IMG/VR virus record: IMGVR_UViG_3300029131_000181
Length of the DNA stretch: 64,000 nucleotides
Direction: 5' to 3' (one strand)
Source: a virus
Shown here: positions 16,079 through 45,385 of the stretch, in pieces
Position numbering within the stretch: the stretch's first letter is position 1
How the letters are laid out: the number at the start of each line of letters is the position of its first letter
The notes under the pieces: model-generated
Told to the model about the DNA's origin: nothing
Databases searched by the model: none
Seen by the model: the letters and a program-made list of their open reading frames with translations, nothing else
Translations under genes and position numbers: made by a program

Positions 16079-16549
16079 TTACAGCTTCCAAATCTCGACA
16101 TTTACATTCCAGGCTTTAGCCGCATCGCTGATGATGTCCAGAACCGTGTTCCAATCGCCTCCGGCAAGGCCGCAGCCTAAACCATATGGCAGCCGGATAG
16201 TTACGTCCTGATTATTTCGAGCGCAGTCTCTAAAAAACGAGAACAGCGCAGTCGCCAATGCAGCATAATTCGTCTGTCTTTCACCACGGCCATAGCCATT
16301 TTGGCCGAACAGGTTCACGATGTACAGCTTCGGTTCTACCAGAACCTCCTGGTAAGTACCGAGCTTGTTGCCGTTGTTTCCATAGCAAAACTCCAGATAG
16401 CGCTGATATACCACCGGCCATTGGATGCAAATTTGCATGGCAAGTCCAGCTCCCATCACGCCTTTGCAATTTACTTGCTGGCAAATGTAAGTTGGCTTAC
16501 TCGCAGAAAGTCGTGAAAAAATATTGCCATCAACAAAATTTATGCTCAT
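16079..16549 (-). CDS. macro-domain protein (ADP-ribose binding/hydrolase)
   Basis: Trimmed to MSINFVDGNIF. QQVNCKGVMGAGLAMQI and GLGCGLAGGDW are macro-domain signatures. Confidence 0.85.
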   Translation of the reverse strand: MSINFVDGNIFSRLSASKPTYICQQVNCKGVMGAGLAMQICIQWPVVYQRYLEFCYGNNGNKLGTYQEVLVEPKLYIVNLFGQNGYGRGERQTNYAALATALFSFFRDCARNNQDVTIRLPYGLGCGLAGGDWNTVLDIISDAAKAWNVNVEIWKL

Positions 16550-16550
16550 C

Positions 16551-16958
16551 TCACTTACCACCTTTTCCAAATTTCGAGGCATTTCCCGGATAAATCGCAT
16601 AGCCCGTGCGATAATCAACGCTATCGTCTCGGTATACGAGCTCTACATTCGACATGCTGGTATAAAAGACTTTATCACGATAACGGCTATCGTTGATTTC
16701 AAACTTGATGTTTTGCCCGTTGTCCACGATTTCGTAGCTTACAAGAGCAGATACAGTCCAGATGTTATCATAGCGAAAATGAATGTAATTGTATTCCGGT
16801 TCCGTATCAGCGCTTTCCGGTGTAGCCAGCATCTGACTCGGAATGTCTTCGAGTTCAGACATTGTGGTACTTGTCACAGTGCTGATTGCGTCCTCACAGC
16901 CAGCCAAAGGTAGAGCCAGGCAGCACAGCACCAAAGCAGTTCCAATAAATTTTTTCAT
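16551..16958 (-). CDS. small lipoprotein
   Basis: MKKFIGTALVLCCLALPLAGCED lipobox. RBS GACGGAGAAAT. Confidence 0.75.
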   Translation of the reverse strand: MKKFIGTALVLCCLALPLAGCEDAISTVTSTTMSELEDIPSQMLATPESADTEPEYNYIHFRYDNIWTVSALVSYEIVDNGQNIKFEINDSRYRDKVFYTSMSNVELVYRDDSVDYRTGYAIYPGNASKFGKGGK

Positions 16959-16981
16959 AGTTATTTCTCCGTCTGATTTTT

Positions 16982-17009
16982 ATTGTACGCAGTTCGCACA
17001 AAAGAAAAA
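16982..17009 (-). promoter_or_regulatory. motif-class promoter, copy 5 (weak -35)
   Basis: TTTTTC-TTTTGTGCGAACTGCG-TACAAT. The -35 overlaps the U-run of terminator 17000-17041. Confidence 0.5.
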
Positions 17010-17041
17010 GCTACCCAACAGCCATAAGGCCACTGAGCAGC
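17000..17041 (-). terminator. terminator of short transcript
   Basis: Minus strand GCTGCTCAGTGG-loop-CTGTTGGGTAGCTTTTTCTTTT. G:U pairs occur only on the minus-strand RNA. Confidence 0.55.
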
Positions 17042-17087
17042 TTAGTGTGAATTCTATTGTGTGCATAGTATCTTTCGTACAAATTCG

Positions 17088-17115
17088 ATGGTATGAGATT
17101 CGCACGCCGGGTCAA
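17088..17115 (-). promoter_or_regulatory. motif-class promoter, copy 6
   Basis: TTGACC-CGGCGTGCGAATCTCA-TACCAT. Confidence 0.5.
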
Positions 17116-17283
17116 GACACATCGGCAGCTACGCATCCTGGCACCTACGGTTCCAACGGCAAAAAGCGCAGCTACGCAACAAATAAGCAAAAAGAAAAAG
17201 CCGCCCACCCGGTCAGGGGTGAACGGCAGGAAACGCTATCTATGTAAAAAAACGACTGAGTTCGTCAGAGGTCTTGTAATCTA

Positions 17284-18807
17284 TCAGGCAGCCATCTTCG
17301 CTGCGGTTTTGCCCTTCGGACCCTTCTTCCGTGCATTGGCTTCAAGCTCCTTCTTGTTGGTATCATACCAAACCTCGAACTCCTTGAAGTTGTTCAACGC
17401 CCAAATCTCAGGAGAAGCCTTGCGACCGTAAGTTTCTTCCAACAGGTGGATAACTTTGCGGCCAACTTCTTCCATGATTTCGGCATCGTATTTGCCGCCA
17501 CCGCAGTAAAACCCTTCAGGCATAATAATGTCGTATTTAGGGTCAAGAACTTCAAGCCCCGGCTCCAAAACGCGAATGCCTTTGTAGCCAGCTTTGCGTA
17601 CAGCTTCAAATTTGAAGCGGTCCTTTTCGGCAGCATCTGCGTGCGGATATTTTCCATTATACTCATAAATGAGTCTCTGGATATGGTCCACGAAGTCTAA
17701 TCCCAAAAGACTATTTTCGCCCAAGATGTTTCGAACATCAAAGAAGGGGTTGGCAATTCCGTTTTCACCGGCAAATGCCAACATGGGACGTGTGTAAAAC
17801 CACTCCGGCTTGGAAATGGCATTGATTCTTCGCATTTTGCAGTCGTAGCATCCAGTAAGACCGTTGTTCACAGAACGAACAATATTGTTAATTGCAGCTT
17901 CGAATTCTTGCCCGCAATCACGGCATTTGAAGAAGGCTTTTTTGTTGCTTTGAACAGTTACTTCTGAAGCAGAAAGCTTGTTTTTACTACTCCACATGGA
18001 GGCTGCTTTCGGACATTGCGACGCAAGGTCATTGATGCCGGGAACAACCCTCCGACCTACGCAAACTAGGCATCCAGTGTTGCCGTTTTTTACAGCACAA
18101 ACAACATCTCCAATTATGGCTTTGAACTCTTGCCCACAATCCGGGCACACAAAGAAAGCTTTTTTCCCGCTTTTAGCTGTGACTTCTGAAGCGGAAAGCT
18201 TATTTTTATTACTCCACATAGCGGCTGCTTCTGGGCACTGTGACGCAAGGTCATTGATGCCAGGGGCAACTCTTAGTCCTCTGCAAACAGGGCAACCTGT
18301 GTTTCCGTTACTTACAGAATAGACAACGTGTTCGATTTTGGCTTCAAATTCTTCCCCGCAGTCCGGGCATACGAATATCGCCTTTTTGTTGCATTTGACA
18401 GCAATTTCCGAGGCAGACTTTTTGTTTTTGTTACTCCACATAGCTGCAATTTCCGGGTATTTCGACGCAAGGTCGTTGATGCCGGGGATAATCTTTCTTC
18501 CTGCGCAAACAGAGCAACCCGTGAATCCCTTGTCTACAGAACGAACAACATTAAAGATTCTGCTTTCAAATTCCTGCCCGCAATCAGGACACACAAAAGT
18601 GAGTTTTTTATTGCTTCCAGTAGTAACTTCAAAGGCAAGTTTCTTATCTTTTTCGCTCAGCATTGCAGCTACTTTTGGGCAAGCAACAGCAAGGCAATTT
18701 TTCTTAACCACTTCATACGGCATCTCAATGCCAAGAGCCGGAATAGGAGCGCAAGAAGCGCAGTTGCAAGAGTTAGCGTGCATCATAATTTTCATGTTAG
18801 TATTCAT
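17284..18807 (-). CDS. zinc-ribbon repeat protein with C-terminal Vsr/DUF559-like domain
   Basis: Trimmed to MNTNMKIMMH (AAAGGAG RBS). Four 74-aa repeats of the form PGINDLAS..P..AAMWS.KNK.SASEV......FF.CPDCGQEF......V......GNTGC.VC. C-terminal LDFVDH..IYEYNG..H resembles the Vsr-like nuclease core. Confidence 0.75.
   Translation of the reverse strand: MNTNMKIMMHANSCNCASCAPIPALGIEMPYEVVKKNCLAVACPKVAAMLSEKDKKLAFEVTTGSNKKLTFVCPDCGQEFESRIFNVVRSVDKGFTGCSVCAGRKIIPGINDLASKYPEIAAMWSNKNKKSASEIAVKCNKKAIFVCPDCGEEFEAKIEHVVYSVSNGNTGCPVCRGLRVAPGINDLASQCPEAAAMWSNKNKLSASEVTAKSGKKAFFVCPDCGQEFKAIIGDVVCAVKNGNTGCLVCVGRRVVPGINDLASQCPKAASMWSSKNKLSASEVTVQSNKKAFFKCRDCGQEFEAAINNIVRSVNNGLTGCYDCKMRRINAISKPEWFYTRPMLAFAGENGIANPFFDVRNILGENSLLGLDFVDHIQRLIYEYNGKYPHADAAEKDRFKFEAVRKAGYKGIRVLEPGLEVLDPKYDIIMPEGFYCGGGKYDAEIMEEVGRKVIHLLEETYGRKASPEIWALNNFKEFEVWYDTNKKELEANARKKGPKGKTAAKMAA
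17790..18681 (-). repeat. 4 x 222-bp in-frame tandem repeat inside the CDS
   Basis: ACTCCACA landmark recurs at 17989, 18211 and 18433 (period 222). Limits approximate. Confidence 0.8.
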
Positions 18808-18927
18808 GATAGATTTCTCCTTTGTTATCAATAAAAATAAAAAAGCAGCCACCCTTCCCTCTTTTGAGGGCAAAAGCGACTGCTTTACGTTCAATGGGTA
18901 TTGAGTTGTTATTCATGAAGAATTGCT

Positions 18928-19113
18928 TCACTCGTCCAGCATAACCTGCAAACGGGCGTTGAATTCCTTCATGTCGGCGCTTTCCTCGGCTGCAGCAAGG
19001 ACACGCGGATAAATTTCCGGATTCATGCTCTTCAGCATGTTCAGAGTAGAAAGAAGCAGAGGGTTGGTGATAGTCATAGTAAGCATCTCCTTGTTATTCA
19101 TAGTAATGTTCAA
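18928..19113 (-). CDS. hypothetical small protein
   Basis: 61-aa ORF whose stop-proximal region is followed by the next gene. The upstream gene overlaps by 4 nt. Confidence 0.45.
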   Translation of the reverse strand: MNITMNNKEMLTMTITNPLLLSTLNMLKSMNPEIYPRVLAAAEESADMKEFNARLQVMLDE

Positions 19114-19952
19114 ACGTTGGTATTCGTGCGATGGCCTTTCAGCGTGCCCTTGTTGAACTGTGTCAAACGGGCGTGCTTCAGAACAAATCCGTCTTCGAAT
19201 TGAACGTCAACGGCGTTTGTGCTGATGATGCGAATGATGGTTGCTTTCGAGCCATCATTCATGGTCTTGGTCATAGGTCCGCTATACTCGACCTTAAAAT
19301 CGAAAGGAAGCGGCTTATGCTTGGTGCAGCAGGGACAAGAAGAACTGCCGTTATTGATGCAGTGGACAAGAGAATTCACGTGAGTGACGTATTCTTCTCC
19401 GCAATCCGGGCATACAATGACGACCTTCTTGCAGCTATTGGCACTTACTTCACGCGGGGAGAAAGCGTTTTTGCTGCTCCACATTTTTGCCACGGCAGGA
19501 GATGTGGTTGCCAAGTCATTGGTTCCGGGAACGACTTTCATGCCACGGCATACGGGGCAAGTGAAGGTTCCATTCTCGATGTCTTTGACCAAAGAGATGA
19601 TTTTTGTTGTGTACTCTGCATGACAATCAGGGCATACAACAATCACCTTTTCGGGACTGTCACAGCGAACTTCGTCGGGATGAATCGTGTTTTTAGGACT
19701 CCACATAGCTGCAATTTTGGGATACTTGGTAGCCAAATCATTGACTCCGGGAACAAGCTTTTCGCTATGGGTTTCTTCGGCTTTGAATGCCGTAGTTACC
19801 TTACGGTTTTTGACCGTTTTGAATCGGCAGACAGGGCAGGCAGTTACGCCACGCTGCTTAGCTCTAACAAGGTTTGCCTCGTAGGTTGTGTATTTGCAAC
19901 CGCAATCGGGGCAGATGGTGATGACTTTTTCGTTCATGTTAATGTTATTCAT
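19110..19952 (-). CDS. zinc-ribbon repeat protein (paralog of 17284-18807)
   Basis: Trimmed to MNNINMNEKVITICPDCG. Three CPDC..CPVC treble-clef-like units with VPG.NDLAT linkers. Weak RBS. Confidence 0.65.
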   Translation of the reverse strand: MNNINMNEKVITICPDCGCKYTTYEANLVRAKQRGVTACPVCRFKTVKNRKVTTAFKAEETHSEKLVPGVNDLATKYPKIAAMWSPKNTIHPDEVRCDSPEKVIVVCPDCHAEYTTKIISLVKDIENGTFTCPVCRGMKVVPGTNDLATTSPAVAKMWSSKNAFSPREVSANSCKKVVIVCPDCGEEYVTHVNSLVHCINNGSSSCPCCTKHKPLPFDFKVEYSGPMTKTMNDGSKATIIRIISTNAVDVQFEDGFVLKHARLTQFNKGTLKGHRTNTNV

Positions 19953-20008
19953 GATAGTTCCGGGTGCTGCTCTTGATGCAATCTCCACAGCGGGTCGGTC
20001 GCTTCTGC

Positions 20009-20044
20009 AAAACAAAAAGGACAACCTCAAAATGAGGCTGTCCT
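20009..20044 (-). terminator. leader hairpin + U-run between promoter copy 7 and gene
   Basis: Minus strand AGGACAGCC-loop-GGTTGTCCTTTTTGTTTT. Confidence 0.6.
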
Positions 20045-20100
20045 TGCAAAAGCGGAATGTTAAAAATAAATTGGTAAGTGGTATCTTTGATACAACATCT

Positions 20101-20128
20101 ATCATAGCCATCTCGCACACATTGTCAA
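20101..20128 (-). promoter_or_regulatory. motif-class promoter, copy 7
   Basis: TTGACA-ATGTGTGCGAGATGGC-TATGAT. Confidence 0.55.
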
Positions 20129-20129
20129 A

Positions 20130-20169
20130 CAAAAAAAGACCCTGCCCGCATTTTGCTGCGAGCAGGGTT
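20130..20169 (-). terminator. rho-independent terminator
   Basis: Minus strand AACCCTGCTCGCAGCAAAATGCGGGCAGGGTCTTTTTTT, after gene 20189-20509. Confidence 0.75.
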
Positions 20170-20188
20170 TGCTTTTGCACTGTTGTGC

Positions 20189-20509
20189 TTAGCCTTCAAG
20201 GTCGAAGGTGTAGCTGTCTTCTTTCATTGCAACAAGGCCCTTAAACGTCTGGCACTCGGCGTCGTCCAGGAATGCCTTGATGGTCAGGCTGGTATCCTCG
20301 TTATCCAGCCATTCGGGACGCATACGGACAACGAGGTCGTGCAGCTCTCCGACGACATAGGCCATCAGGTCCTGGTCGCCCAGGGCCTCACCAATTGCTT
20401 CATCATCGTATTCGACAGGGAAGCTGATGGAAGCGGCGAGGCCGTCGAGTTCGTCAAAATCTTTGGGACGGATTACAGTGGCTTCAAGTTTCAGAATGCT
20501 AGTGCTCAT
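20189..20509 (-). CDS. hypothetical acidic protein
   Basis: 106 aa, RBS AAAAGGAG. Confidence 0.65.
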   Translation of the reverse strand: MSTSILKLEATVIRPKDFDELDGLAASISFPVEYDDEAIGEALGDQDLMAYVVGELHDLVVRMRPEWLDNEDTSLTIKAFLDDAECQTFKGLVAMKEDSYTFDLEG

Positions 20510-20557
20510 GGTAAAATCTCCTTTTTGTGTGTTGTGGTTTGTCTTTCAACATTTTTA

Positions 20558-20585
20558 ATTGTACGCAATTCGCACGCTGTAGCAA
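20558..20585 (-). promoter_or_regulatory. motif-class promoter, copy 8
   Basis: TTGCTA-CAGCGTGCGAATTGCG-TACAAT, about 45 nt upstream of ATG 20509. Confidence 0.65.
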
Positions 20586-20639
20586 TACAAAATTTCTTAT
20601 ATTGGGTTCGCAATTTCTTGTATTTGCCTTGGGATTCTG

Positions 20640-20720
20640 CACAAATCAAGACCTATGAAAGGGTGAAATCCTACACAAATCAAGACCTTAACACACCCCA
20701 AAAACAACACAAATCAAGGA
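20640..20720. repeat. three direct repeats CACAAATCAAG(A/G)(C/A) spaced 34 bp
   Basis: Copies start at 20640, 20674 and 20708 (the third is shorter). Located just upstream of promoter copy 8. Confidence 0.7.
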
Positions 20721-20776
20721 TTTTGCTTCACCAATTCTTGCCGCCGTGTACACCGCACACCAGGCAAAACGCCTCA

Positions 20777-21070
20777 TCAATGCTCCTGCAGTTCATCGAC
20801 CTGAATCCGCGTGGGCCCATGAGCATGTTCCCGCACAAAATATAGGTTTCGCTCATGCCCCGGCCGCTGATACTTATGGTGTTCCCAAAGACATGAACGG
20901 TTGAGCCATCTCGACACATGGCAAACATTATATACGTCTCGCTTTCTGTTTTTGTTTCTTATCATTCTAGGCAAATCGCATAATGAGTCAATTTCAGACA
21001 TTCTGGAATAAGCATCCATTAGGCAGCGTTCCCTTTTGAGGTTGTTGGCTACATAATAACCACGTGGCAT
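20777..21070 (-). CDS. hypothetical protein (doubtful)
   Basis: The ATG directly follows the stop of the upstream gene. Atypical R/H/C-rich composition. Overlaps an alternative 66-aa ORF (20728-20928). Confidence 0.3.
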   Translation of the reverse strand: MPRGYYVANNLKRERCLMDAYSRMSEIDSLCDLPRMIRNKNRKRDVYNVCHVSRWLNRSCLWEHHKYQRPGHERNLYFVREHAHGPTRIQVDELQEH

Positions 21071-21886
21071 TTATTCTTCCGCACTAATCATCAGCCCATG
21101 AATGTAGTTTTTTGAATGGCTTTTCCCACTTTTTAACGCTTTTACATCAATAATAGCAGCTCTATAAATAGGCTGTTTCAACCTTCTAAAGCCATCGGAC
21201 AATTTGTCGTAATATTTATATGGTGCGTACCAAATCATGTAATCTGCATCACTATTTTTTATGATGCTTTGAAATTTTATATCATGTGCATAGAAGTGGA
21301 GCTGTGACGGAGAGACATAATTGATTTGACCTTTTTCAGGGATAATATAAGTTTGACCGGCGAAAAGTTGCGTATATGCAGTGGATTCGTCATAAACAAA
21401 AAATATAGTTTTGAAGTTTTCATGGTTTTGTTGGTAAAGTGGAATTTTGTTATTGTGACTCGAAACAACTCGCTCAAAGGAATCAAAATACCACTTGAAT
21501 TGATGGTCCTCCATTGTAGGCAAGTCCGTAACAGCGTTTATTACGACATCTTGTGTTTCGCTTGTAATGACGCCAGCATTTTTGAATTTTCTATACACTT
21601 GACTTTCTTTTTCTGCTTTTGGATTATATAATTTGCCTTTTTTCCCTTTCCTCGTATTATCCTCTATCTTCATAACATCCATCATAAGGCCATATTTATC
21701 CGAGTAAAAATCCGGTGGTGGTGCATTATGTGCAGAGGTATCTATCCATTCATTCCAGAAGTTTTTGCTTTGAATGATGGAACGCAGTTCCGCTTCTTCT
21801 TTTGTATTACATAATAAGCAAATTTCTTTTGTTGGCTCTGTTTGAAATTTACGAATTAACTGTTTTTCTGATTCAATCATAACCAT
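21071..21886 (-). CDS. hypothetical protein, AT-rich cargo gene
   Basis: Trimmed to MVMIESEKQ (AGAGGG RBS). Visibly AT-richer than its neighbours. PPPDFYSDKYGLMMDVMKIED could be a nuclease-type motif but is unproven. Confidence 0.65.
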   Translation of the reverse strand: MVMIESEKQLIRKFQTEPTKEICLLCNTKEEAELRSIIQSKNFWNEWIDTSAHNAPPPDFYSDKYGLMMDVMKIEDNTRKGKKGKLYNPKAEKESQVYRKFKNAGVITSETQDVVINAVTDLPTMEDHQFKWYFDSFERVVSSHNNKIPLYQQNHENFKTIFFVYDESTAYTQLFAGQTYIIPEKGQINYVSPSQLHFYAHDIKFQSIIKNSDADYMIWYAPYKYYDKLSDGFRRLKQPIYRAAIIDVKALKSGKSHSKNYIHGLMISAEE

Positions 21887-21904
21887 CGCCCTCTTTCTGC
21901 GAAA

Positions 21905-22018
21905 CAAAAAGCTTCCCACCGCAGTCAGTGTGATACTGATTACGATGGAGGATTAAACCTTTTGTGATAGTCTTATTATACCACGCTTCGTGAATTACTC
22001 GAATTACTCAAGGCCAAT
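21905..22018 (-). repeat. promoter + leader-hairpin cassette, copy A
   Basis: ~80% identical to 23285-23393. Contains TGGTATAAT (-10 at 21975-21980) and hairpin 21912-21951. Confidence 0.7.
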
Positions 22019-22052
22019 CTTAGTACACCCCTCCTTCAGGTGGGGTAGTTGA

Positions 22053-22080
22053 CTTGTATGAGGTTCGCATAATCGGTTAA
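22053..22080 (-). promoter_or_regulatory. motif-class promoter, copy 9 (degenerate)
   Basis: TTAACC-GATTATGCGAACCTCA-TACAAG. Confidence 0.3.
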
Positions 22081-22130
22081 CCGTCATACCTCATGAATCC
22101 GACCAGACCGGACTTTAAATTTCTTTGTAA

Positions 22131-22165
22131 ACAAAAAATAGTCCGCACAGAACTGAATCTGTACG
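22131..22165 (-). terminator. rho-independent terminator
   Basis: Minus strand CCGTACAGATTCAGTTCTGTGCGGACTATTTTTTG, after gene 22174-22638. Confidence 0.65.
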
Positions 22166-22173
22166 GGCTCGTA

Positions 22174-22638
22174 TTAGTCATGAGGATGTTCGTGGCATGG
22201 TTCAGGCGGCATACCATGCGGGTCAGGCTCTTGGAAGTGACCATGGTCCCCGATGATTTCCGAAGTACGGATACCGTTCGCTTTCCGGCAAGCCTCAATG
22301 GTTTTAGAAAGCACTTCCTTGACATCGCGCGGGTTCTTGATACGACGGATATCGATTTCCGGTGTCATAGCATCCGTGGAGCAGAGATGGATGCTGCCAA
22401 CACGGCACAGACGCTCATAGAAGTTCTGCTTGAATGCGATGTCCCGGACGCGGTACAGCTGAATCTCGTCCTCGCGCAAATTGAAGCAGCCACGCTGGAT
22501 GATGAGTTTGGTCTCGGTCAGGGTGTACTTCGTAAAGGATAGCGGCAGAGAAAAAATGGTGTGGCGTTTTCGGTCGGTCCAGAGAATTTTCTCCTTGTCC
22601 AAGTCGATGCCGAACTCGCCGTTTTTGAGGGTGGACAT
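22174..22638 (-). CDS. bacterial PH-domain (bPH_2/DUF304-like) protein
   Basis: 154 aa. The pattern KYTLTETKLIIQRGCFNLREDEIQLYRVRDIAFKQNFYERLCRVGSIHL resembles YdbS/YdbT-type PH domains. His/Pro-rich tail. Confidence 0.5.
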   Translation of the reverse strand: MSTLKNGEFGIDLDKEKILWTDRKRHTIFSLPLSFTKYTLTETKLIIQRGCFNLREDEIQLYRVRDIAFKQNFYERLCRVGSIHLCSTDAMTPEIDIRRIKNPRDVKEVLSKTIEACRKANGIRTSEIIGDHGHFQEPDPHGMPPEPCHEHPHD

Positions 22639-22730
22639 GGTATGGTTCCTTTCGTTATGTGATTGGTTTTGGTTATTGGTATTCTGCTTGATGGTGTGTG
22701 GAATGATGTTATAGTCTTTATATTGAGTAT

Positions 22731-22759
22731 ATTATACCATGCTGTGATGATTTTAGCAA
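22731..22759 (-). promoter_or_regulatory. consensus extended -10 promoter
   Basis: Minus strand TTGCTA-N17-TATAAT with TGG immediately upstream of the -10. Confidence 0.65.
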
Positions 22760-22815
22760 TTCCATTTAAAGTGTTAGTACGCAAACAAAGCCCGGTTCAC
22801 TATTGGTCTCCAATA

Positions 22816-23265: not shown

Positions 23266-23284
23266 ACAGAATCCTCCTTAAAAT

Positions 23285-23393
23285 AAACAGCCTCCCACCG
23301 CAGTCAGCATACTACTGATTACGATGGGAGGCTCAAAACCTTTTGTGATGGTTCTATTATATCACGCCTTGCGAAAAACTCAAGGCAAATTTC
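23285..23393 (-). repeat. promoter + leader-hairpin cassette, copy B
   Basis: TTGAGT-N16-TATAAT with a TGA extension (-10 at 23356-23361). An 18-bp imperfect hairpin at 23291-23331 is followed by CTGTTTATTTT and the RBS. Confidence 0.7.
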
Positions 23394-23399
23394 AATAAC

Positions 23400-23789: not shown

Positions 23790-23799
23790 TAACTTCTAC

Positions 23800-27910: not shown

Positions 27911-27923
27911 GTCTATATCTCCC

Positions 27924-29813: not shown

Positions 29814-29832
29814 ATTGAATTTCCCTCTTTAA

Positions 29833-29868
29833 TAAAAAATCCTATGCAGAATCTCTCTGCATAGGATG
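29833..29868 (-). terminator. hairpin + U-run directly before RBS of gene 29813
   Basis: Minus strand ATCCTATGCAGAGAGATTCTGCATAGGATTTTTTATTAAAGAGGG. Confidence 0.65.
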
Positions 29869-30111
29869 CCTTTTTACTTATTTGAATAAGGCTGTTTATT
29901 TCTTCCGTCTGAATCTATTATGTCACGGGCTGGTCCCCACAAAAAAATGAGCGTTAAATGTGCGGAAACGCACAAAAAACGCACGCACACATTTTTTGAA
30001 TGATGCGTGCGTTTATGATAGCTTTTATTTAATGAAATGAGAGAATATATAGTGGCACTTCAGAGTAGGGCTTTCTGCTTTCCCCTGTACCCTGTCGTTG
30101 ATGGATGCTTT

Positions 30112-30246
30112 TCATTTGCGCCCGCACTTGGTGCAGACCCAGTAAACAGCATTTGTGCCGGAAGCTGTTACCTGCATCGGGTCGATGCGGGTGTTGAGCT
30201 TACGGTTCCAGTTGTCGCGCAGTTCCGGATGAAATTTAGAAAACAC
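30112..30246 (-). pseudogene. orphan single zinc-ribbon repeat fragment
   Basis: Read by eye: ..FSKFHPELRDNWNRKLNTRIDPMQVTASGTNAVYWVCTKCGRK*. Matches the HPEL..W..N...DP......S...V.W.C.KCG unit of the 622-aa protein. No ATG or RBS. Confidence 0.55.
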
Positions 30247-30278
30247 AAAAAGAAGCCGCAGAAACCTATCCTCTGCGG
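30247..30278 (-). terminator. rho-independent terminator just downstream of promoter copy 10
   Basis: Minus strand CCGCAGAGGATAGGTTTCTGCGGCTTCTTTTT. Confidence 0.65.
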
Positions 30279-30304
30279 CTACACTTATTTATCTTATATT
30301 TCCT

Positions 30305-30332
30305 ATCATATCCAATTCGCACGGATGCACAA
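30305..30332 (-). promoter_or_regulatory. motif-class promoter, copy 10
   Basis: TTGTGC-ATCCGTGCGAATTGGA-TATGAT. Confidence 0.5.
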
Positions 30333-30483
30333 GGCAAAATTGTGGCAAAACCGTAGCAAAACAGTGGCAAAGACAAGGTACATGGGACTTGTTCCGTTGC
30401 TGAACAGGAAATGCCAAAAAACAACTGCTTTGCTCAAATATGTCATCTCGTGTATTTTCTTGTCATTTATTGTAAATTCGCGC

Positions 30484-30512
30484 TTGCTTTTTGGTGCGGG
30501 ATGTGCTATTAT
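30484..30512 (+). promoter_or_regulatory. plus-strand promoter of the 466-aa gene
   Basis: TTGCTT-N17-TATTAT, with an overlapping TATAAT 3 nt downstream. Confidence 0.5.
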
Positions 30513-30568
30513 AATTACATAAGATGACAGCATTGTACAGCTAACGACATATTTGAAAGGAGTACACC

Positions 30569-31969
30569 ATGATTTATGTTAACCTCGCCATGCCCGTGAT
30601 TTTCTATAAGCAGCTGCCCGGCATCGCTAAGAAGCTGGATGTGGATGCTGATTTTTTGAAAGGCTTTCTCACCAACGCCAGGTGTTATGTCGAGGATGCC
30701 GGAAAAGGTGAAGTGCTTGAGCTGGACAACTCGGCCGACACGATAACGAAAGTTGTCGCAACCCATGAGAAGCGTTTCTATGGCGCGGAAGCCATTGTGG
30801 AATTCGCCAAGAGCAAAGGCGTGGATATTCCTGCACTGAACCATTTTGAACTTGGTGCAGATATCTCTGCCCATGCAACGGAAGACCAAGTTGCCAACAT
30901 CACTGCATTGGCCGCACGAGTCGAGCGCCTCAATAATCGGTACAAGAGTCTTGCCCGGCTTGAAGCCCCGGACGTCATCCTGATGAACGAAGCAAGGATG
31001 GTGCGTGACGCAGTAGAGCAGCTGGAAGATAACAGCGGTACATACTCCCCGGCTCTTGACCAGAACGGGGTTGCCTATCAATCCTTGAAGGATATTGGGT
31101 ATTCTCTTGTCACCGGTTGGGACAAGTCGGTACTTGAAAAGAACAGCAATAAGGATACGGAGGCCACCTTTCCCAAAGAGCCCGACTTTCAAAGGCTGGC
31201 ATCGCTGGTCAAAAAAGCCATCGGAACCCGCACACAGGGTAAGTTTGCGTTTCAAGCGGGGCTGACTCGTGGATATATCAGTAACCTTGCGAACGGCAAC
31301 GCGAAAGCTCAGCCGACCGAGAATACCATCAAGAAAATTGCAAGCGCAACAGATGCTGTCACGGAGAACGAGCTTCGTATCGCCTGTGGGTATGAGCCCT
31401 TGCCTGACGACGGGAAAGACAAGCTCTCTATGCAGCGTGCAAGCATGTCTGATGACGCATGGCAGAAAGACAACGTGGATGCATTCCTCTCTTTTCTGAA
31501 TGAAACGATTCCAATGTCCACTCCTCTTTCGTCCACTGAAATTCTTCAAGCTCTTTTCAAGGAAAAATACGGTGACAAGAACGACCAGATTCTGCTGGAA
31601 AAGGTCTCTGCCCCCGGCACCTATCGTACGGAAGGTACGGCTGCTAATGTCATTCTACCCATTCGTCTTTGTTGGTTCAGCTTCAAGCGGATGCTGATGC
31701 AGACTCTCTATGTAGGACTTATCGGGCATTACAGCAAAAACGATGAGCTGTACATTACCGGATACATTTCTTCTGTGAAAGAGCTGCATGACGCGGTTCC
31801 GGCGCTGCGAGGCGGCATTGATGCGGCCTATGACGCGAGTCTGCCGGAGGGAATCGACATCATGAAGTTCCCGGTATTTTACACGGCTTCCAATGTTCAG
31901 GAAGCATACAAGCGGGTCCAGCAGAAAATCGTCTCCAAAATTGACGAGTCAGCCGCCGTAAGCTTGTGA
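30569..31969 (+). CDS. XRE-type HTH-containing protein
   Basis: 466 aa with RBS AAAGGAG. Internal TRTQGKFAFQAGLTRGYISNLANGN is HTH_3-like. The 344-aa minus ORF opposite is a shadow. Confidence 0.75.
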   Translation: MIYVNLAMPVIFYKQLPGIAKKLDVDADFLKGFLTNARCYVEDAGKGEVLELDNSADTITKVVATHEKRFYGAEAIVEFAKSKGVDIPALNHFELGADISAHATEDQVANITALAARVERLNNRYKSLARLEAPDVILMNEARMVRDAVEQLEDNSGTYSPALDQNGVAYQSLKDIGYSLVTGWDKSVLEKNSNKDTEATFPKEPDFQRLASLVKKAIGTRTQGKFAFQAGLTRGYISNLANGNAKAQPTENTIKKIASATDAVTENELRIACGYEPLPDDGKDKLSMQRASMSDDAWQKDNVDAFLSFLNETIPMSTPLSSTEILQALFKEKYGDKNDQILLEKVSAPGTYRTEGTAANVILPIRLCWFSFKRMLMQTLYVGLIGHYSKNDELYITGYISSVKELHDAVPALRGGIDAAYDASLPEGIDIMKFPVFYTASNVQEAYKRVQQKIVSKIDESAAVSL

Positions 31970-32042
31970 CTTCAGTCATGAGTTAGGCGACTTTTCTCTT
32001 GATTTGTAATCTCACATATGGTATAATAATTATGGTGATATT

Positions 32043-32462
32043 ATGCAAATGTTCGTCAATAATAACCTGTCATATGGTAGAGGTTATGTTTACAATATTC
32101 AATATCATATTGTGTGGTGTACAAAGTACAGAAAACCAGTTTTGATAAACGAAACAGAACAATCGCTAAAAGAGTCTCTGCAGCAGACCGCCGAAACCAT
32201 AAAAATCAATATTGTAGAAATGGAATGCATGCCTGACCATATTCACCTGTTGGTGGAGTGTTCACCGCAGCATTTTATCCCGGATATGATAAAAGTGCTT
32301 AAAGGCAACAGTGCAAGAGCTATTTTTATCGCCAATCCGGACTTGAAGAAGCAACTTTGGGGCGGGCATCTTTGGAACCCAAGCTACTTTATTGCAACCG
32401 TCAGTGATAACACGCGCAAACAAGTACAAGAATACATTGCATCTCAAAAAATAAGAAACTGA
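32043..32462 (+). CDS. tnpA: IS200/IS605 Y1 (HUH) transposase TnpA
   Basis: YNIQYHIVWCTKYRKPVL, the PDHIHLLV HUH motif and C-terminal YIASQ tyrosine. Confidence 0.95.
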   Translation: MQMFVNNNLSYGRGYVYNIQYHIVWCTKYRKPVLINETEQSLKESLQQTAETIKINIVEMECMPDHIHLLVECSPQHFIPDMIKVLKGNSARAIFIANPDLKKQLWGGHLWNPSYFIATVSDNTRKQVQEYIASQKIRN

Positions 32463-32480
32463 TGAAAGGGGGGCTTCGCA

Positions 32481-33812
32481 GTGAAAATCACTTCCAGCTA
32501 TGCTGTGGAAATCAAAAAGCAGAAAATGTTCGACAATACTATAAAGATTTATCGCGAAGCCGTTTCTTTCTTGATTGGTTGTTTTAACAAAGAATGGGAT
32601 TCTATTCAAAAAGTAGAGGGTGCCAAATCTCGAAAGAGTTTTGCCGAGAAGTTAATTCATACTACAAAATACAGCACTGCTAAATATGATTTCGATGCCA
32701 AGTTTTATAAGTTCCCTAGTTACCTGCGCAGAGCGGCTATTCAAGCAGCACTCGGCTCTGTAAGCAGCTACTACAGTAGCCATAAGAACTGGGAAGCAAA
32801 CGGCAAGGTTGACAGGGAGCCAAAACTTCAATGCGATAGATTTTGCTTCCCGGCTTTTTATAAGACCGTTATGTATGAGGAAAGCAACAAACCAAACCAG
32901 TGCTATCTGAAGCTGTATAAAAACAATGACTGGGTTTGGGTTCCTATCGCAATGCGTGCCACCGATGTCAAATACATCACGAAATACTGGTCACATTGCG
33001 AAAAGAGTGCTCCTGCACTCGAAAAGAAGTACGGGAAGTATTTCCTACGCTTTGCCTTCGAGGAAGAGGTAAAACTCTCCGAAACTGAAATTCAAGACAG
33101 GCGTATCTGCGCTGTAGACCTTGGTCTCAATACTGACGCCGTGTGCAGCATCATGACTGCCGATGGAACTGTCCTTGCAAGAAAATTTATCAATTTTGCA
33201 AGTGAAAAAGACCATCTGTATCATGTGCTCAACCGTATTAAGCGTAAGCAAAGAGAACATGGACCTAAGAGTGCTGCTGCTATGTGGCGTTACGCCAAAG
33301 CCTTGAATAACGATATAGCGAAAAAGGTTGCTGCTGCGATTACTGAATTTGCTGTGCTTTATTCTGTAGATGTGATTGTTTTTGAACATTTGTCATTTAC
33401 AGGCAAAAAGCACGGTGGCAGTAAGGCACAGAAGCTGTCGATGTGGAAGCGTAATTCCATACAGGATTATGTGGAACACAAGGCGCACCGCTGCGGTATC
33501 CGGATTTCGCGTATCTGTGCTTGGGGGACAAGCAAACTCGCCTTTGATGGCAGTGGTGCTCTCAAGCGTGATGAAACCAATCGTGCCCTTGCAACGTTTG
33601 CAAGCGGCAAACAATACAACTGCGACCTAAGTGCGAGCTACAATATTGGCGCTCGCTACTTTGTCAGAGAGTTGCTAAAACCCTTGCCAGCGATGGTAAG
33701 GTCTCAGCTTTCGGCTAATGTTCCGGATGTTGAGCGTAGAATCCAAGTTACACTTGCCACGCTTAAAGTTCTGTATCCTGAGCTTAAAAAACTCAGTACA
33801 CAGGCAGCGTAA
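32481..33812 (+). CDS. tnpB: TnpB-like RuvC nuclease lacking the zinc-finger cysteines
   Basis: 443 aa with GTG start. RuvC triad candidates are CAVDLGLNTD, VIVFEHL and NCDLSASYNIGARYF. The usual CxxC..CxxC segment is replaced by WGTSKLAFDGSGALKRDETNRALATFASGKQY. Confidence 0.8.
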   Translation: MKITSSYAVEIKKQKMFDNTIKIYREAVSFLIGCFNKEWDSIQKVEGAKSRKSFAEKLIHTTKYSTAKYDFDAKFYKFPSYLRRAAIQAALGSVSSYYSSHKNWEANGKVDREPKLQCDRFCFPAFYKTVMYEESNKPNQCYLKLYKNNDWVWVPIAMRATDVKYITKYWSHCEKSAPALEKKYGKYFLRFAFEEEVKLSETEIQDRRICAVDLGLNTDAVCSIMTADGTVLARKFINFASEKDHLYHVLNRIKRKQREHGPKSAAAMWRYAKALNNDIAKKVAAAITEFAVLYSVDVIVFEHLSFTGKKHGGSKAQKLSMWKRNSIQDYVEHKAHRCGIRISRICAWGTSKLAFDGSGALKRDETNRALATFASGKQYNCDLSASYNIGARYFVRELLKPLPAMVRSQLSANVPDVERRIQVTLATLKVLYPELKKLSTQAA

Positions 33813-33985
33813 GATGTACAGATGCTAACTGAGTTATTAGTTTTCTTGCGGTGATGGCTCCCGTCTGGACGCCTGAGCTGAGGGATTACCGTATCTTTCG
33901 TTAGAACGCCGCTACCCATAAAAGGAGCGGGAAGCCCGCGACTTTAGTCGTGGGAGGATTCACTGTAAGGCTTCCGTTATCGCTT
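33813..33985 (+). ncRNA. TnpB omega RNA / right-end region (extent approximate)
   Basis: GC-rich hairpins, for example GGGAAGCCCGCGACTTTAGTCGTGGGAGG, immediately 3' of tnpB. Confidence 0.45.
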
Positions 33986-33990
33986 ATGCG

Positions 33991-34260
33991 ATGAACAATG
34001 AGACGGTTCTCTGTGCAGGACAGGACATCTTTGACGGGATGCTGGGCAGCAAAGAAACCGATGCAGAAAATTGCTCTTGCGTTTCTGTCTCTGACAAAGA
34101 GTTTGCCCGTCTGCATTCCAAGTTTGGCCTCAAGAAAGAGGACGTTCTGGAAGCTATCAAGGCATACGCGCAGGAGCTCGGTCTGGAGTACGGCCCCGTC
34201 AACTATTTCATGATGTGTGACCCGAAATACGCAAATGACCTTGGCGAAGTTGTTCAGTGA
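33991..34260 (+). CDS. hypothetical protein (possibly 5'-truncated by the IS)
   Basis: 89-aa ORF with ordinary composition but no RBS. The frame stays open into the IS right end. Confidence 0.4.
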   Translation: MNNETVLCAGQDIFDGMLGSKETDAENCSCVSVSDKEFARLHSKFGLKKEDVLEAIKAYAQELGLEYGPVNYFMMCDPKYANDLGEVVQ

Positions 34261-34314
34261 GTTGTTCTGAATGCGGCAAGGTGATTCGCTGCCATAATGG
34301 ATGAGGTGTTTCCT

Positions 34315-34749
34315 ATGACACAAACCGATACCAATACCCGTATTACCGGCCTTGGCTTTTACTTGGATGAAATCGAAAAGCCGATATTTTGCATTTTTCT
34401 TGAGAATCATCGTCAGACTATAGATGCCATGAGCGCATCTGCTTCTGTTCGTGCATTTCTTGACCGTATATGTCTCGATAACGGCCGCATTAACTACGAT
34501 GAGGCGGATAGGCTTTTGGCGAAAGATGAGGATTGTGCTTTGCTCGGTAAATGTCTTGCCTCCGCCCTTAATCACGAATTTGGAGAAGAGTTGCTCTCCT
34601 GCCACTATAGCAGCTCAACTGATATTAACCGTCCGTGCCTTATCCTTTTACCTGAAAAAGTCAAGGATGAACCGGCCATAGCATGTGTGCAAAAGGCAGC
34701 AAATGAGCTGCTCGTCGATTTCGAGCATGTGTGCCACGACACCCACTAA
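34315..34749 (+). CDS. hypothetical protein
   Basis: Trimmed to MTQTDTNTRITG (GAGGT RBS). Followed by the bidirectional terminator. Confidence 0.55.
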   Translation: MTQTDTNTRITGLGFYLDEIEKPIFCIFLENHRQTIDAMSASASVRAFLDRICLDNGRINYDEADRLLAKDEDCALLGKCLASALNHEFGEELLSCHYSSSTDINRPCLILLPEKVKDEPAIACVQKAANELLVDFEHVCHDTH

Positions 34750-34751
34750 AC

Positions 34752-34796
34752 AAAAAAAGAAGGCTGCTACCCGTGATGGGCGGCAGCCTTTTGTCT
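34752..34796. terminator. bidirectional rho-independent terminator
   Basis: AAAAAAAGAAGGCTGCTACCCGTGATGGGCGGCAGCCTTTTGT between convergent genes. Confidence 0.8.
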
Positions 34797-34821
34797 TAAA
34801 AAAGGAAATGACTCGCAAATA

Positions 34822-35274
34822 TTATTTACTCGTTTGTTTTTTTAGCTTGTCCCTCGTTTCCATCAGAATAATCCCAAGCCGGTTCTGACCCGGGATGTTC
34901 CGGCATTTCGGGCAATGGCAGTTTCCCCAGTAGTTATCGTGCCAACTGGTGGTATCTTCCTCGATTGGCTGCGTTCCCGTTTCGAGGAGACGCTGCTTGA
35001 GGTCTTTATTCTGTTCGAATTTAGCCATCACCACGCGGCGCATTACATCGTCCCGGGTTTCGTCCCAGTTGGCAGGGAAAGCCACATGACGGCCAAAATG
35101 CTTAGCCGTTGCCGGAGGCATGTCTGAAAATTGTTTGCGCTCTTCCAGCGGAACCTTGTGGCTCTGAAACGCTGCTTCGGCATTCTTGTAACGAATCCCA
35201 TTCATCACAAATTCGCAAGAATAATAGTTACTCATAAACCAGTAGCGAGGGGTATCTTTTCTAAATCGAATCAT
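34822..35274 (-). CDS. NADAR (YbiA/DUF1768) family protein
   Basis: RYWFMSNYYSCEFVMNGIRYKNAEAAFQSHK and WDETRDDVMRRVVMAKFEQNKDLKQRLLETG are NADAR signatures. Confidence 0.85.
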   Translation of the reverse strand: MIRFRKDTPRYWFMSNYYSCEFVMNGIRYKNAEAAFQSHKVPLEERKQFSDMPPATAKHFGRHVAFPANWDETRDDVMRRVVMAKFEQNKDLKQRLLETGTQPIEEDTTSWHDNYWGNCHCPKCRNIPGQNRLGIILMETRDKLKKQTSK

Positions 35275-45384: not shown

Positions 45385-45385
45385 G

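Follow-up and report, generated by a model that had tools for sequence, protein, structure and literature searches.

We analysed a 64,000-nucleotide stretch of DNA from IMG/VR virus record IMGVR_UViG_3300029131_000181 (hereafter referred to as the window), in which two predicted ADP-ribose erasers, a macrodomain protein (macro) and a NADAR protein, had been proposed to form a toolkit with two ART-like writers, ART-HD and a DUF3990 protein. All four genes are present, and their open reading frame boundaries agree with those proposed. The macro, NADAR and DUF3990 genes lie on the minus strand and the ART-HD gene on the plus strand. With their neighbours they occupy four separate units, at 1.7–2.7, 16.1–17.0, 34.8–38.1 and 48.4–52.2 kb. 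The features annotated in the window are as follows:

1720–2169, minus: 149-aa partner of DUF3990, PDC-M10B-like, overlapping the DUF3990 gene by 4 nt
2166–2618/2672, minus: DUF3990 protein of the Pfam ART clan, whose gene leads a PDC-M10-like pair
14728–15837, minus: IS605-family TnpB, inserted right downstream of macro and not part of the function
16079–16549, minus: accessory gene for a 156-aa macrodomain protein of the SCO6735 type (Gln) within the TARG1/DarG (ALC1-like) class
16551–16958, minus: lipoprotein of 135 aa with an LAGC lipobox, encoded upstream of macro and translationally coupled to it
16960–34800, no strand: hypervariable island between macro and NADAR
34822–35274, minus: predicted NADAR (YbiA/Glu-type) ADP-ribosyl glycohydrolase, 150 aa, Pfam PF08719
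35296–35850, minus: 184-aa protein with no family assigned, tightly packed between helicase and NADAR
35855–38050, minus: SF2 (ResIII/DEAD) DNA helicase, whose gene opens the helicase–184-aa–NADAR unit
48422–49064, plus: Phd/YefM-like antitoxin and PIN toxin pair, directly upstream of ART-HD
49237–50634, plus: ART-HD, 465 aa
50645–52174, plus: 509-aa protein with no family assigned, directly downstream of ART-HD (10-nt gap)

The element is most likely an uncultivated large phage that is very prevalent in the human gut, and its host probably belongs to the gut Bacillota. The index of a public assembly collection lists the exact NADAR protein in 4050 of its blocks, and related contigs in IMG/VR reach about 270–280 kb; the element itself was not found among deposited phages. 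That it is a large plasmid or conjugative element instead, with genes serving the host as defence or addiction cargo rather than in counter-defence, we regard as very unlikely. Such a view could appeal to the computational nature of IMG/VR assignments, to the failure to recognise any capsid, tail or terminase gene within the 64-kb window, and to the abundance there of RM, TA, IS and candidate defence genes. However, the helicase of the element is carried by 25 viral contigs of IMG/VR and its closest deposited relatives are found in Faecalibacterium and Streptococcus phages (~50% identity), several window proteins match PHROG families, and searches returned no megablast match among 72,556 plasmids and no relative among the 185,579 species-representative genomes of GTDB.

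The NADAR protein matches PF08719 over profile positions 2–163 of 163 (E=5e-26; 92.3 bits, cut-off 35.1), YbiA (2b3w; E=1.5e-13) and, by phmmer, PnNADAR (8bau; E=3.5e-9), as well as the PADLOC model PDC-M42C (E=3e-14); it matches Pfam Phage_30_3 only weakly (E=0.004). Nine key residues of PnNADAR (E43, K50, K75, R79, W89, R93, E125, D130 and W133), for which catalytic and ADP-ribose-contacting roles have been described (PMC11543638), are identical in the window protein in all nine cases (E33, K40, K58, R62, W70, R74, E106, D113 and W116, respectively, in the phmmer alignment to 8bau). The NADAR subfamilies are told apart by one position, occupied by Asp in BC4488-type proteins, by His in the T4-like phage NADARs and by Glu in the YbiA type; it is Glu here, E106 aligning with E125 of PnNADAR and with the Glu in the 'LVE' of YbiA. 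Residue 2 of the protein aligns with residue 17 of YbiA; the protein is therefore a minimal core that lacks an N-terminal extension.

NADAR is a backbone gene that closes a conserved helicase operon. The helicase (Pfam ResIII, E=9e-36; PHROG 16 DNA helicase, E=3e-96) has a terminator-like site upstream of it (38092–38068) and is separated by 4 nt from the gene for the 184-aa protein, which in turn is separated by 21 nt from NADAR. This three-gene arrangement is conserved in all six loci compared. The middle protein, which gave no family match in searches that included Pfam profiles, is kept at 184 aa in five of these loci and at 162 aa in the sixth (L008). The remaining neighbour of NADAR is an opposite-strand protein of 144/150 aa, and neither DarT1 nor any other ART is found among the neighbours.

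The macro gene starts with an ATG preceded by GGTGG, and gene calls on at least 23 metagenome contigs yield its exact product. Although its Pfam Macro score of 14 bits falls short of the threshold (22), the protein matches solved macrodomain structures (5e3b, E=6e-13; 2fg1, 5e-10; 6lft, 2e-7; 5m31, 3e-4), TARG1 (hhalign, 97%) and the PADLOC DarG model (E=7e-14). The motifs VNCxGxMGAGLA and GCGLAGGxW are invariant in its family, and the ADP-ribose-binding loops (N27, M32-G33-A34-G35 and G125-C126-G127-L128-G130-G131) show little or no variation among 22 family members. Q83, likewise invariant, aligns with K84 of TARG1 and with Q85 of SCO6735 (5e3b), and A129 aligns with D125 of TARG1. Judged by these sequence features, the protein is a true macrodomain of the TARG1/DarG class and of the SCO6735 type. 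On alignment, the catalytic and binding residues of both erasers are intact, in keeping with the original prediction.

The macro protein also has peculiarities within the SCO6735 subclass. At position 25, Val or Ile is expected, the backbone of this SCO6735-specific residue positioning the catalytic water; the window protein has Q25, which is invariant in its own family. The mobile loop, which in the subclass exceeds that of TARG1/DarG by about 5 residues and carries Lys89 and Lys93, is here 3 residues longer than that of TARG1 and 2 residues shorter than that of SCO6735, with G87 at the position of K89, R91 at that of K93, and an additional R88.

A single nucleotide separates the stop codon of the lipoprotein gene from the macro ATG, and the pair is conserved in 6/6 loci compared; in a sister lineage, a lipoprotein homolog lies ~1 kb upstream of macro with two genes in between. 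The proposed co-transcription of the two genes is plausible, given the 1-nt gap, the lack of a terminator-like site between them and the presence, directly upstream of the lipoprotein gene, of two strong hairpins resembling terminators. Macro itself is an accessory gene sited in a hypervariable island. It was found in 10 of 19 related contigs, its neighbours across loci being the lipoprotein and TnpB or a UvrD-like helicase. TnpB, which matches Pfam OrfB_IS605, Cas12f1-like_TNB and HTH, is missing downstream of macro in two loci (L003 and L005). The island contains DUF4379 zinc-finger endonuclease-like genes, an HTH protein, a type II RM-like triplet (24845–27955) and IS200/IS605 sequences (32043–33812). 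Its gene content varies among the six NADAR loci compared, and the interval from NADAR to DUF3990 ranges from 4.0 to 29.1 kb across the 19 related contigs.

The DUF3990 protein matches PF13151 (E=1e-51; 174.8 bits), a family listed in the Pfam ART clan (PMC7955679), and weakly ART-PolyVal (E=1e-3). It also matches PADLOC PDC-M10A (E=1e-77), and its 149-aa partner, which has no Pfam match, hits PDC-M10B (E=3e-55). The two genes may constitute a self-contained two-gene conflict module of the candidate PDC-M10 kind.

ART-HD is composed of a small N-terminal domain, a six-helix domain, a minimal R-S-ExE ART domain (residues ~195–280) and a C-terminal HD phosphohydrolase domain (~310–465). Y203-R204-G205 lies on a strand (199–206), S218-W219-T on another (218–220) that is followed by a helix, and E260-x-E262 at a third (262–264); the R, S and ExE motifs are invariant among 30 members of 27–38% identity. 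No Pfam ART family matches ART-HD or any of the 30 relatives, a PADLOC search gave no match and a PDB profile search gave only spurious MBP matches. In the HD domain, the metal-binding residues H317, H321, H355-D356, H394, D425 and D430 are conserved; the Pfam HD score is 16.7 bits (cut-off 22), with E-values down to 2e-10 in 17 of the 30 relatives, and Foldseek relates the domain to PPX and PDE HD domains with probability ~1, all E-values being at least 0.1. A minimal ART fold is supported, fused to an intact HD domain. The family comprises 119 representative clusters at E≤1e-30, and the architecture, of ~460 aa, is common to most of the best 150 family representatives (445–505 aa). Upstream of ART-HD, the antitoxin gene (48422–48673; Pfam PhdYeFM, E=1e-6) overlaps the PIN gene (48657–49064; PIN_3, E=9e-21); this pair stays with ART-HD in the close lineage and is not found in a lineage at 57% identity. 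The 509-aa protein downstream, which has no Pfam, PHROG or PADLOC match, is kept beside ART-HD in the close lineage only.

ART-HD may be viewed as a stand-alone member of a large uncharacterised R-S-ExE ART plus HD family, and presumably serves the phage as an effector, modifying a target in the host or in a competitor. Legionella SidE combines an mART with a PDE. By analogy, the ART and HD phosphodiesterase of ART-HD might act in turn on one substrate, the first adding ADP-ribose to the target and the second cutting it back to a phosphoribosyl adduct, or the adduct being transferred on, which would make ART-HD the founding example of an unmodelled family. The family would then be without an accompanying eraser or immunity gene because macro or NADAR could not remove such a mark. 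We consider this sequential scheme highly speculative.

Neither adjacency nor shared orientation nor strict co-occurrence links the writers and erasers into a single system; the four ADP-ribose-related genes are independent modules. ART-HD is present in 9 of 11 related contigs, and its presence or absence and that of macro do not track each other. Nor do the data support the suggestion that the collection is "unusually complete": T4 itself has three ARTs and one NADAR; homologs of macro occur in 850 deposited phage records and those of NADAR in 458; and the co-occurrence of macro and NADAR in large phages has been documented already.

These patterns bear on the proposal that the erasers provide self-immunity against, or regulate, the phage's own writers, paired as in DarT–NADAR, YarT–YbiA and DarTG. 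Pierisin/ScARP-type R-S-E ARTs make guanine-ADP-ribose, which NADARs can reverse; DUF3990 weakly matches PDC-M42A (E=8e-5), a component of the same candidate system as PDC-M42C; and T4-like phages express NADAR early along with their ARTs (PMC9503650). However, the genes are spread over four transcription units and 48 kb, the nearest writer and eraser being 14 kb apart on opposite strands, and DUF3990 overlaps a partner of its own, the pair fitting PDC-M10A/B. ART-HD occurs without macro in 4 of the 11 related contigs, while contig 183020 has macro and NADAR without ART-HD. No eraser adjoins ART-HD family genes in six contexts; relatives of ART-HD in five other contexts have no macro, NADAR or ARH neighbour. 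We therefore consider self-immunity improbable.

The reading we favour, with a probability of about 0.55, is that an AdfN-like NADAR and an AdfM/SCO6735-like macro, among four independent modules of a large gut phage, counter DarT-type DNA ADP-ribosylation. NADAR would act like AdfN, as an orphan N-glycosidase on replicating phage DNA, its predicted substrate being guanine-ADP-ribose, and probably cytosine-ADP-ribose, made by host DarT1-type or pierisin-type ARTs. Its tight packing behind a replication-type helicase, conserved across the loci compared, speaks for this role. All NADAR subtypes tested, including YbiA and T4 gp30.3, hydrolyse guanosine-ADP-ribose but not thymidine-ADP-ribose (PMC11125620), YbiA-type NADARs also remove cytidine-ADP-ribose (PMC12945103), and divergent orphan phage NADARs (AdfN) rescue phages from DarTG1 (PMC11825919). 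Macro would act like SCO6735 or AdfM, removing thymine- or uracil-ADP-ribose left by DarT2-type toxins through the Gln-dependent mechanism of SCO6735. SCO6735 removes DarT-made thymidine-ADP-ribose and rescues cells from DarT, for which Gln85 is required, Q85A being inactive (PMC9411070); it also reverses uracil-ADP-ribose (PMC13036486), and the PhiKZ macrodomain AdfM counters DarTG2 (PMC13309987). NADAR and macro together would cover both known DarTG classes. The sequence data show the genes, their folds and families, the conserved residues, the operon structure and the patterns of presence and absence; substrates, counter-defence role and expression timing are inferred from these. In E. coli, YbiA and T4 gp30.3, both active in vitro, did not alone rescue DarT1 toxicity (PMC11125620), so the activity of the class does not guarantee counter-defence. 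The missing N-terminal extension of NADAR, the Q25, the Ala at the K34 position and the shorter loop of macro, and its coupling to a lipoprotein are points against the favoured reading.

Alternatively, the erasers might act on small molecules, namely ADP-ribose-derived immune signals or toxins, such as the cyclic ADPR isomers of Thoeris, or RNA-repair by-products such as ADP-ribose-1''-phosphate. Iyer et al. argued that most phage Macro and NADAR proteins act mainly on small-molecule derivatives of ADP-ribose (PMC9503650); a YpsA/SLOG gene, which they tied to the same network, is close by in relatives of the element, and macro matches yeast Poa1p, an ADP-ribose-1''-phosphate phosphatase (E=2e-7). 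We nevertheless hold this to be unlikely: the closest solved relative of macro is SCO6735 rather than Poa1p, all NADARs and TARG1-like/SCO6735-type macrodomains tested to date act on base-linked ADP-ribose, no Tpt1/KptA or RNA ligase was found within the window, and the literature consulted yielded no report of anti-Thoeris activity for either class. Of the host defences that the erasers had been suggested to counter, DarT gains support, since both enzyme classes reverse DarT-type DNA ADP-ribosylation and have orphan precedents in phages, whereas nothing specific speaks for Thoeris.

If the DarT-directed reading is true, a NADAR sits in the replication operon of a very widespread large human-gut phage, often joined by a Gln-type macrodomain, which would imply that DarT-like toxins exert real selection in gut Bacillota by ADP-ribosylating DNA bases. 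To our knowledge, such modification has so far been studied only in E. coli, Vibrio, Pseudomonas and mycobacteria. Two test objects emerge: a YbiA-type AdfN candidate and a candidate phage anti-DarT2 factor, the first of the SCO6735 type (Gln); the only macrodomain Adf that we know to have been reported is AdfM, which is Lys-type. ART-HD in turn points to a sizeable conserved ART plus HD family not yet modelled in curated domain libraries. The known picture of phage NAD/ADP-ribose conflict systems would stand, with a new host range and further enzyme subtypes added to it.

At the level of sequence, each of the four genes resembles known phage counter-defence or conflict genes. The DUF3990 pair matches both genes of PDC-M10 in the right order, with the 4-nt overlap; PDC-M10 is a computational candidate only, with no mention found in the literature searched, and is here phage-borne rather than in a bacterial defence island. 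Compared with the R-S-E ARTs of phages and toxins (T4 Alt/ModA/ModB, the Rhs toxins TreX/TreTu and AcrIF11) and phage polyvalent-protein ARTs, ART-HD is without any Pfam ART match and adds the preceding six-helix domain and the C-terminal HD phosphohydrolase domain.

Macro has its best solved matches in SCO6735 and BT1257 (E=6e-13 and 5e-10). It keeps the essential Gln of SCO6735 (Q85; Q83 here), Asn27 and both ADP-ribose-binding loops, and its mobile loop, intermediate in length between those of TARG1 and SCO6735, carries basic R88 and R91. It differs in overall sequence (~30% identity), in the replacement of H24, V25 and K34 by Gln, Gln and Ala, and in being phage-encoded and coupled to a lipoprotein gene, the SCO6735 gene being chromosomal and DNA-damage-induced. 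We rejected the possibility that macro is a DarG (DarTG2 antitoxin): it matches the DarG model only over the macro part (profile positions 2–143 of 329), has Gln in place of Lys80, and has neither a DarT-binding C-terminal domain nor a DarT neighbour. AdfM (PhiKZ gp104) is, like macro, an orphan single-domain macrodomain of a large phage (hhalign probability 98%) and has the same VNxxGVMGAGLA motif, in which mutating the Asn lowers the activity of AdfM; AdfM and DarG are, however, Lys-type (FPTK; K80 in DarG).

The DarT1-linked NADAR (DarG1) has an N-terminal extension proposed to form a DNA groove, and shares an operon with DarT1; the window NADAR has neither the extension nor an ART neighbour. 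[quoted passage not shown] AdfN-Bas32, AdfN-Bas60 and the window NADAR all fall outside the T4-like phage NADAR cluster, whose members have His where the window protein has the Glu of the YbiA type. Unlike AdfN, the window NADAR is a predicted enzyme and is embedded in the helicase operon of a gut Bacillota-type phage.

The two putative erasers and two putative writers named in the original prediction are all present in the window sequence, and their boundaries hold:

16079-16549, minus strand: macro, the macrodomain gene (eraser)
34822-35274, minus strand: NADAR (eraser), Pfam PF08719
2166-2618 or 2166-2672, minus strand: DUF3990 (writer), Pfam PF13151
49237-50634, plus strand: ART-HD (writer)

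NADAR and DUF3990 scored 92 and 175 bits against Pfam cut-offs of 35 and 32, respectively. Macro lay below the Pfam Macro threshold (14 bits, E = 0.047, cut-off 22), and for ART-HD Pfam returned just an HD match under its threshold and nothing for ART. Since both fall under Pfam thresholds, their identities needed independent tests, for which we used PDB sequences, PADLOC, hhalign and structure prediction.

The NADAR product matched E. coli YbiA (E = 1.5e-13) and the ADP-ribose (ADPr)-bound structure of PnNADAR (8bau; E = 3.5e-9). All the ADPr-contacting and mechanistic residues of PnNADAR named in PMC11543638 are identical in it: E43, K50, K75, R79, W89, R93, E125, D130 and W133 of PnNADAR correspond to E33, K40, K58, R62, W70, R74, E106, D113 and W116, respectively. 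The active site is intact on alignment. The protein is a minimal 150-aa core without an N-terminal extension, and is of the YbiA type because it has Glu at the subfamily-defining position. Hydrolysis of guanosine-ADPr, and not of thymidine-ADPr, is common to every NADAR subtype tested (PMC11125620), and YbiA-type enzymes also remove cytidine-ADPr (PMC12945103). Judging by these relatives, NADAR would act on guanine- or cytosine-linked ADPr from DarT1- or pierisin-type writers. A caveat is that YbiA or T4 gp30.3 alone did not rescue E. coli from DarT1 toxicity (PMC11125620). NADAR is the last gene of a unit headed by an SF2 helicase gene, which a terminator-like site precedes; a 184-aa gene follows the helicase after 4 nt, and NADAR comes 21 nt later. 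This arrangement is identical in all related loci. NADAR would be expressed with the replication helicase, so as to act on replicating phage DNA.

In a phmmer search of PDB sequences, macro matched SCO6735 best (5e3b; E = 6e-13), followed by Bacteroides BT1257 (2fg1/2afc; about 5e-10), yeast Poa1p (2e-7) and the DarG macrodomains 5m31/5m3i (3e-4 to 8e-4). The PADLOC DarG model also matched (7e-14), covering its macro part only (positions 2-143 of 329), and Pfam does recognise Macro in remoter homologs from Bacillus and its relatives (43-47% identity). The ADPr-binding motifs QQVNCxGxMGAGLA and PYGLGCGLAGGxW are invariant in an alignment of 22 family members. Profile alignment with human TARG1 (97% probability; K84/D125 numbering consistent in the TARG1 sequence used) placed the invariant Q83 at K84 and A129 at D125, and the phmmer alignment placed Q83 opposite Gln85 of SCO6735. 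SCO6735 lacks the TARG1/DarG catalytic residues and requires Gln85, Q85A being dead; it efficiently strips ssDNA of the thymidine-ADPr that DarT makes, and it rescues cells from DarT (PMC9411070). Its substrates extend to uracil-ADPr (PMC13036486), and it does not act on guanosine-ADPr or 2'-OH-ADPr (PMC11833690). By this likeness, the Gln-type macro would act on thymine- or uracil-linked ADPr from DarT2-type writers. The two proteins differ at H24, V25 and K34 of SCO6735, which are Q, Q and A in macro, and the 'mobile loop' of macro, with R88 and R91, is 3 residues longer than that of TARG1 and 2 shorter than that of SCO6735. Classing macro as a DarG was rejected, since Lys80, the C-terminal DarT-binding domain and a neighbouring DarT are all missing. 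A lipoprotein gene lies 1 nt from macro, with strong terminator-like hairpins upstream; a conserved functional pair was ruled out, as two genes intervene in the sister lineage, a related phage group with diverged macro and ART-HD. An IS200/IS605 TnpB gene (14728-15837, minus strand) is inserted directly after macro and is missing in two related contig loci, L003 and L005.

The best-supported reading, to which we give a probability of roughly 55%, is that both erasers serve counter-defence as orphan, antitoxin-like enzymes of complementary base specificity. Family membership, intact active sites, operon context and the core or accessory status of the genes are demonstrated here, whereas both the substrates and the role are proposed by analogy with experimentally characterised relatives. 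Degradation of small-molecule ADPr signals or by-products, which Iyer et al. favour for most phage Macro and NADAR proteins (PMC9503650), appears an unlikely alternative for this pair.

The 'R-S-E ART-HD' label of the original prediction proved right. The AlphaFold model of ART-HD, from a 22-sequence family alignment, was confident (pLDDT 91, pTM 0.83). Full-length Foldseek against the PDB matched only the C-terminal HD domain, which resembled PPX and cyclic-nucleotide PDE catalytic domains (probability ~1, all E-values at least 0.1). As this search was uninformative for the ART part, residues 96-290 were re-modelled alone; the ART proteins listed for ART-HD are PARP15, PARP4, PARP1-3, PARP16, Tpt1, the Rhs toxins TreX and TreTu, diphtheria toxin, AcrIF11 and pertussis toxin S1. 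The stronger support for the predicted ART part comes from its motifs: Y203-R204-G205, S218-W219-T and E260-x-E262 lie on the expected strands and are invariant in 30 family members just 27-38% identical to the window protein, as are the HD residues H317, H321, H355-D356, H394, D425 and D430. Pfam HD was found in 17 of these 30 proteins, HD-CE in 4 and a Pfam ART family in none; the family of the ART part is unmodelled. An exhaustive profile search found the helical+ART module in 4,513 representative clusters at E<=1e-3 (119 at E<=1e-30), and nearly all of the best 150 matches are 445-505 aa long with the module at the same position. Fold matches in BFVD were uncharacterised phage proteins and polyvalent-protein segments; profile-search matches of the family in the PDB were maltose-binding-protein fusion constructs only, which we judged spurious. 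Some homologs (P0109-P0112), which align with the first three quarters of ART-HD at 56% identity (73% of the query), carry annotations for FtsH-like AAA and peptidase M41 domains or for a radical SAM domain; recombination of the N-terminal+ART module with other C-terminal effector domains seems to have occurred.

The DUF3990 gene overlaps a 149-aa gene by 4 nt, and the pair matched PADLOC PDC-M10A/M10B, a candidate two-gene system (1e-77 and 3e-55, respectively); hence this putative 'writer' comes with a partner of its own. Our literature search found no mention of PDC-M10, and DUF3990 only in lists; the Pfam ART clan is one list that includes it (PMC7955679). Two unrelated large IMG/VR contigs, 3300014583_000001 (241 kb) and 3300045988_170940 (238 kb), combine a remote NADAR (46% identity) with a remote DUF3990 (50-53%), so that the combination recurs in other large phages.

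The idea that the four genes form one system failed on operon structure, presence/absence and the neighbourhoods of relatives. ART-HD lies in a plus-strand island (Phd-PIN-ART-HD-509 aa) within a minus-strand backbone. Among the 19 IMG/VR contigs having both NADAR and DUF3990, these two are 4.0 to 29.1 kb apart (32 kb in the window). Macro is in only 10 of the 19, and ART-HD in 9 of the 11 that extend far enough. Macro is missing from 4 of 11 contigs with ART-HD, and contig 183020 has NADAR and macro without ART-HD. The sister lineage has both macro (54-56% identical) and ART-HD (58%), which are thus old residents of the phage group; in the 18 contigs with both they are about 31-34 kb apart and never adjacent. 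In five further contexts, one of them a prophage-like stretch of a bacterial chromosome, the genes next to ART-HD relatives are unrelated, and no macro, NADAR or ARH gene is among them. Strict writer-eraser co-occurrence across genomes was not borne out, macro and ART-HD varying apart. This linkage, with separate units, discordant presence and no adjacency, weakens the proposal that the erasers confer immunity to the phage's own writers, which we consider improbable. Directly upstream of ART-HD (48422-49064, plus strand), a Phd/YefM-like antitoxin gene overlaps the gene for a PIN-domain toxin; this phage-borne type II TA pair is retained with ART-HD in the close lineage of nearer relatives only. 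Neither PIN/Phd nor the 509-aa protein qualifies as an ART-HD partner, as neither is kept in the 57%-identity lineage.

We recognised no structural genes within the window, and assignment to a phage therefore depends on IMG/VR and indirect arguments. At least 23 contigs from human-gut metagenomes carry a macro protein of identical sequence. For NADAR, the identical protein is indexed in 4,050 collection blocks, with contigs of up to 269 kb; contigs carrying close homologs cluster at 266-280 kb. The NADAR-adjoining helicase is on 25 IMG/VR viral contigs and had no relatives in 185,579 species-representative genomes; its nearest deposited relatives (~50% identity) are in Faecalibacterium and Streptococcus phages. 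Megablast of 22 kb against deposited phages and of 24 kb against plasmids gave no near match, and we regard a plasmid or ICE as very improbable. Ribosome-binding sites are of the Shine-Dalgarno type, and a tRNA scan found none. Other genes of the window are as follows:

446-1619 and 42224-42778, minus strand: three Mor/HTH-type transcription activator-like proteins, the one at ~42 kb varying across related contigs
6632-7792, minus strand: 386-aa metallo-beta-lactamase (MBL)-fold protein, with a faint Anti-Pycsar Apyc1 match in precomputed annotation and matches to the MBL domains of PADLOC LmuA, RTasMBL and Avs1a models; may be a cyclic-nucleotide-degrading counter-defence enzyme
17284-18894, 19110-20180 and 27945-29813, minus strand: three multi-copy DUF4379 treble-clef zinc-finger proteins with PHROG 'HNH/homing endonuclease' matches
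24845-27955, minus strand: type II restriction-modification-like triplet of a GmrSD_N+HNH nuclease (PADLOC REase_II, E = 2e-129), a DUF4238 protein and an EcoRI-type adenine methyltransferase (Pfam, E = 4e-109); presence and arrangement vary among related phage contigs
32043-33812, plus strand: IS200/IS605 Y1 TnpA and TnpB-like gene, in the variable island
40017-40904, minus strand: 295-aa backbone protein, AcrVA2-like (PF26125) in precomputed Pfam annotation, nothing significant in fresh Pfam scans
43690-48053, minus strand: SPFH/flotillin (547 aa), 270-aa and VWA-domain (564 aa) proteins in a row, a membrane-scaffold-like trio of the phage backbone, also in the related locus L254
53107-54504, minus strand: RRXRR+HNH protein
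57112-61438, minus strand: 1098-aa T5orf172 (GIY-YIG-like) + ResIII helicase/nuclease, then an Eco57I-type methyltransferase fragment (342 aa); possibly a further module of restriction-like or anti-restriction type

The presence of the DUF4379 and RRXRR+HNH genes varies among related contigs, the pattern expected when selfish homing-type genes fill a variable island. L254 has a YpsA/SLOG-family gene (PF06908; 16069-16623) a few kb beyond the Metallophos gene that corresponds to window 62696-63421, that is, just past the window's right end. As SLOG domains have been tied to the viral NAD/ADPr network by Iyer et al. (PMC9503650), the phage may have a fifth ADPr-related gene beyond the window.

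Homologs of macro and NADAR are in 850 and 458 deposited phage records, respectively. Our literature search found no report of one phage using both. Of interest here are a YbiA-type NADAR fixed in the replication operon of an extremely prevalent gut phage, an SCO6735-type (Gln) macro that may serve as a phage anti-DarT2 factor, and a large conserved ART+HD family absent from the models of curated libraries. AdfN (2025, PMC11825919) and AdfM (2026, PMC13309987) establish the NADAR and macrodomain classes as phage anti-DarT factors, the divergent orphan phage NADARs AdfN-T4, AdfN-Bas32 and AdfN-Bas60 neutralising DarTG1 (PMC11825919). The T4-like phage NADARs have His at the subfamily-defining position, whereas the window NADAR has Glu. 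Macro aligns with AdfM (PhiKZ gp104) at 98% probability and shares its active-site Asn, but AdfM, with its FPTK motif, is Lys-type.
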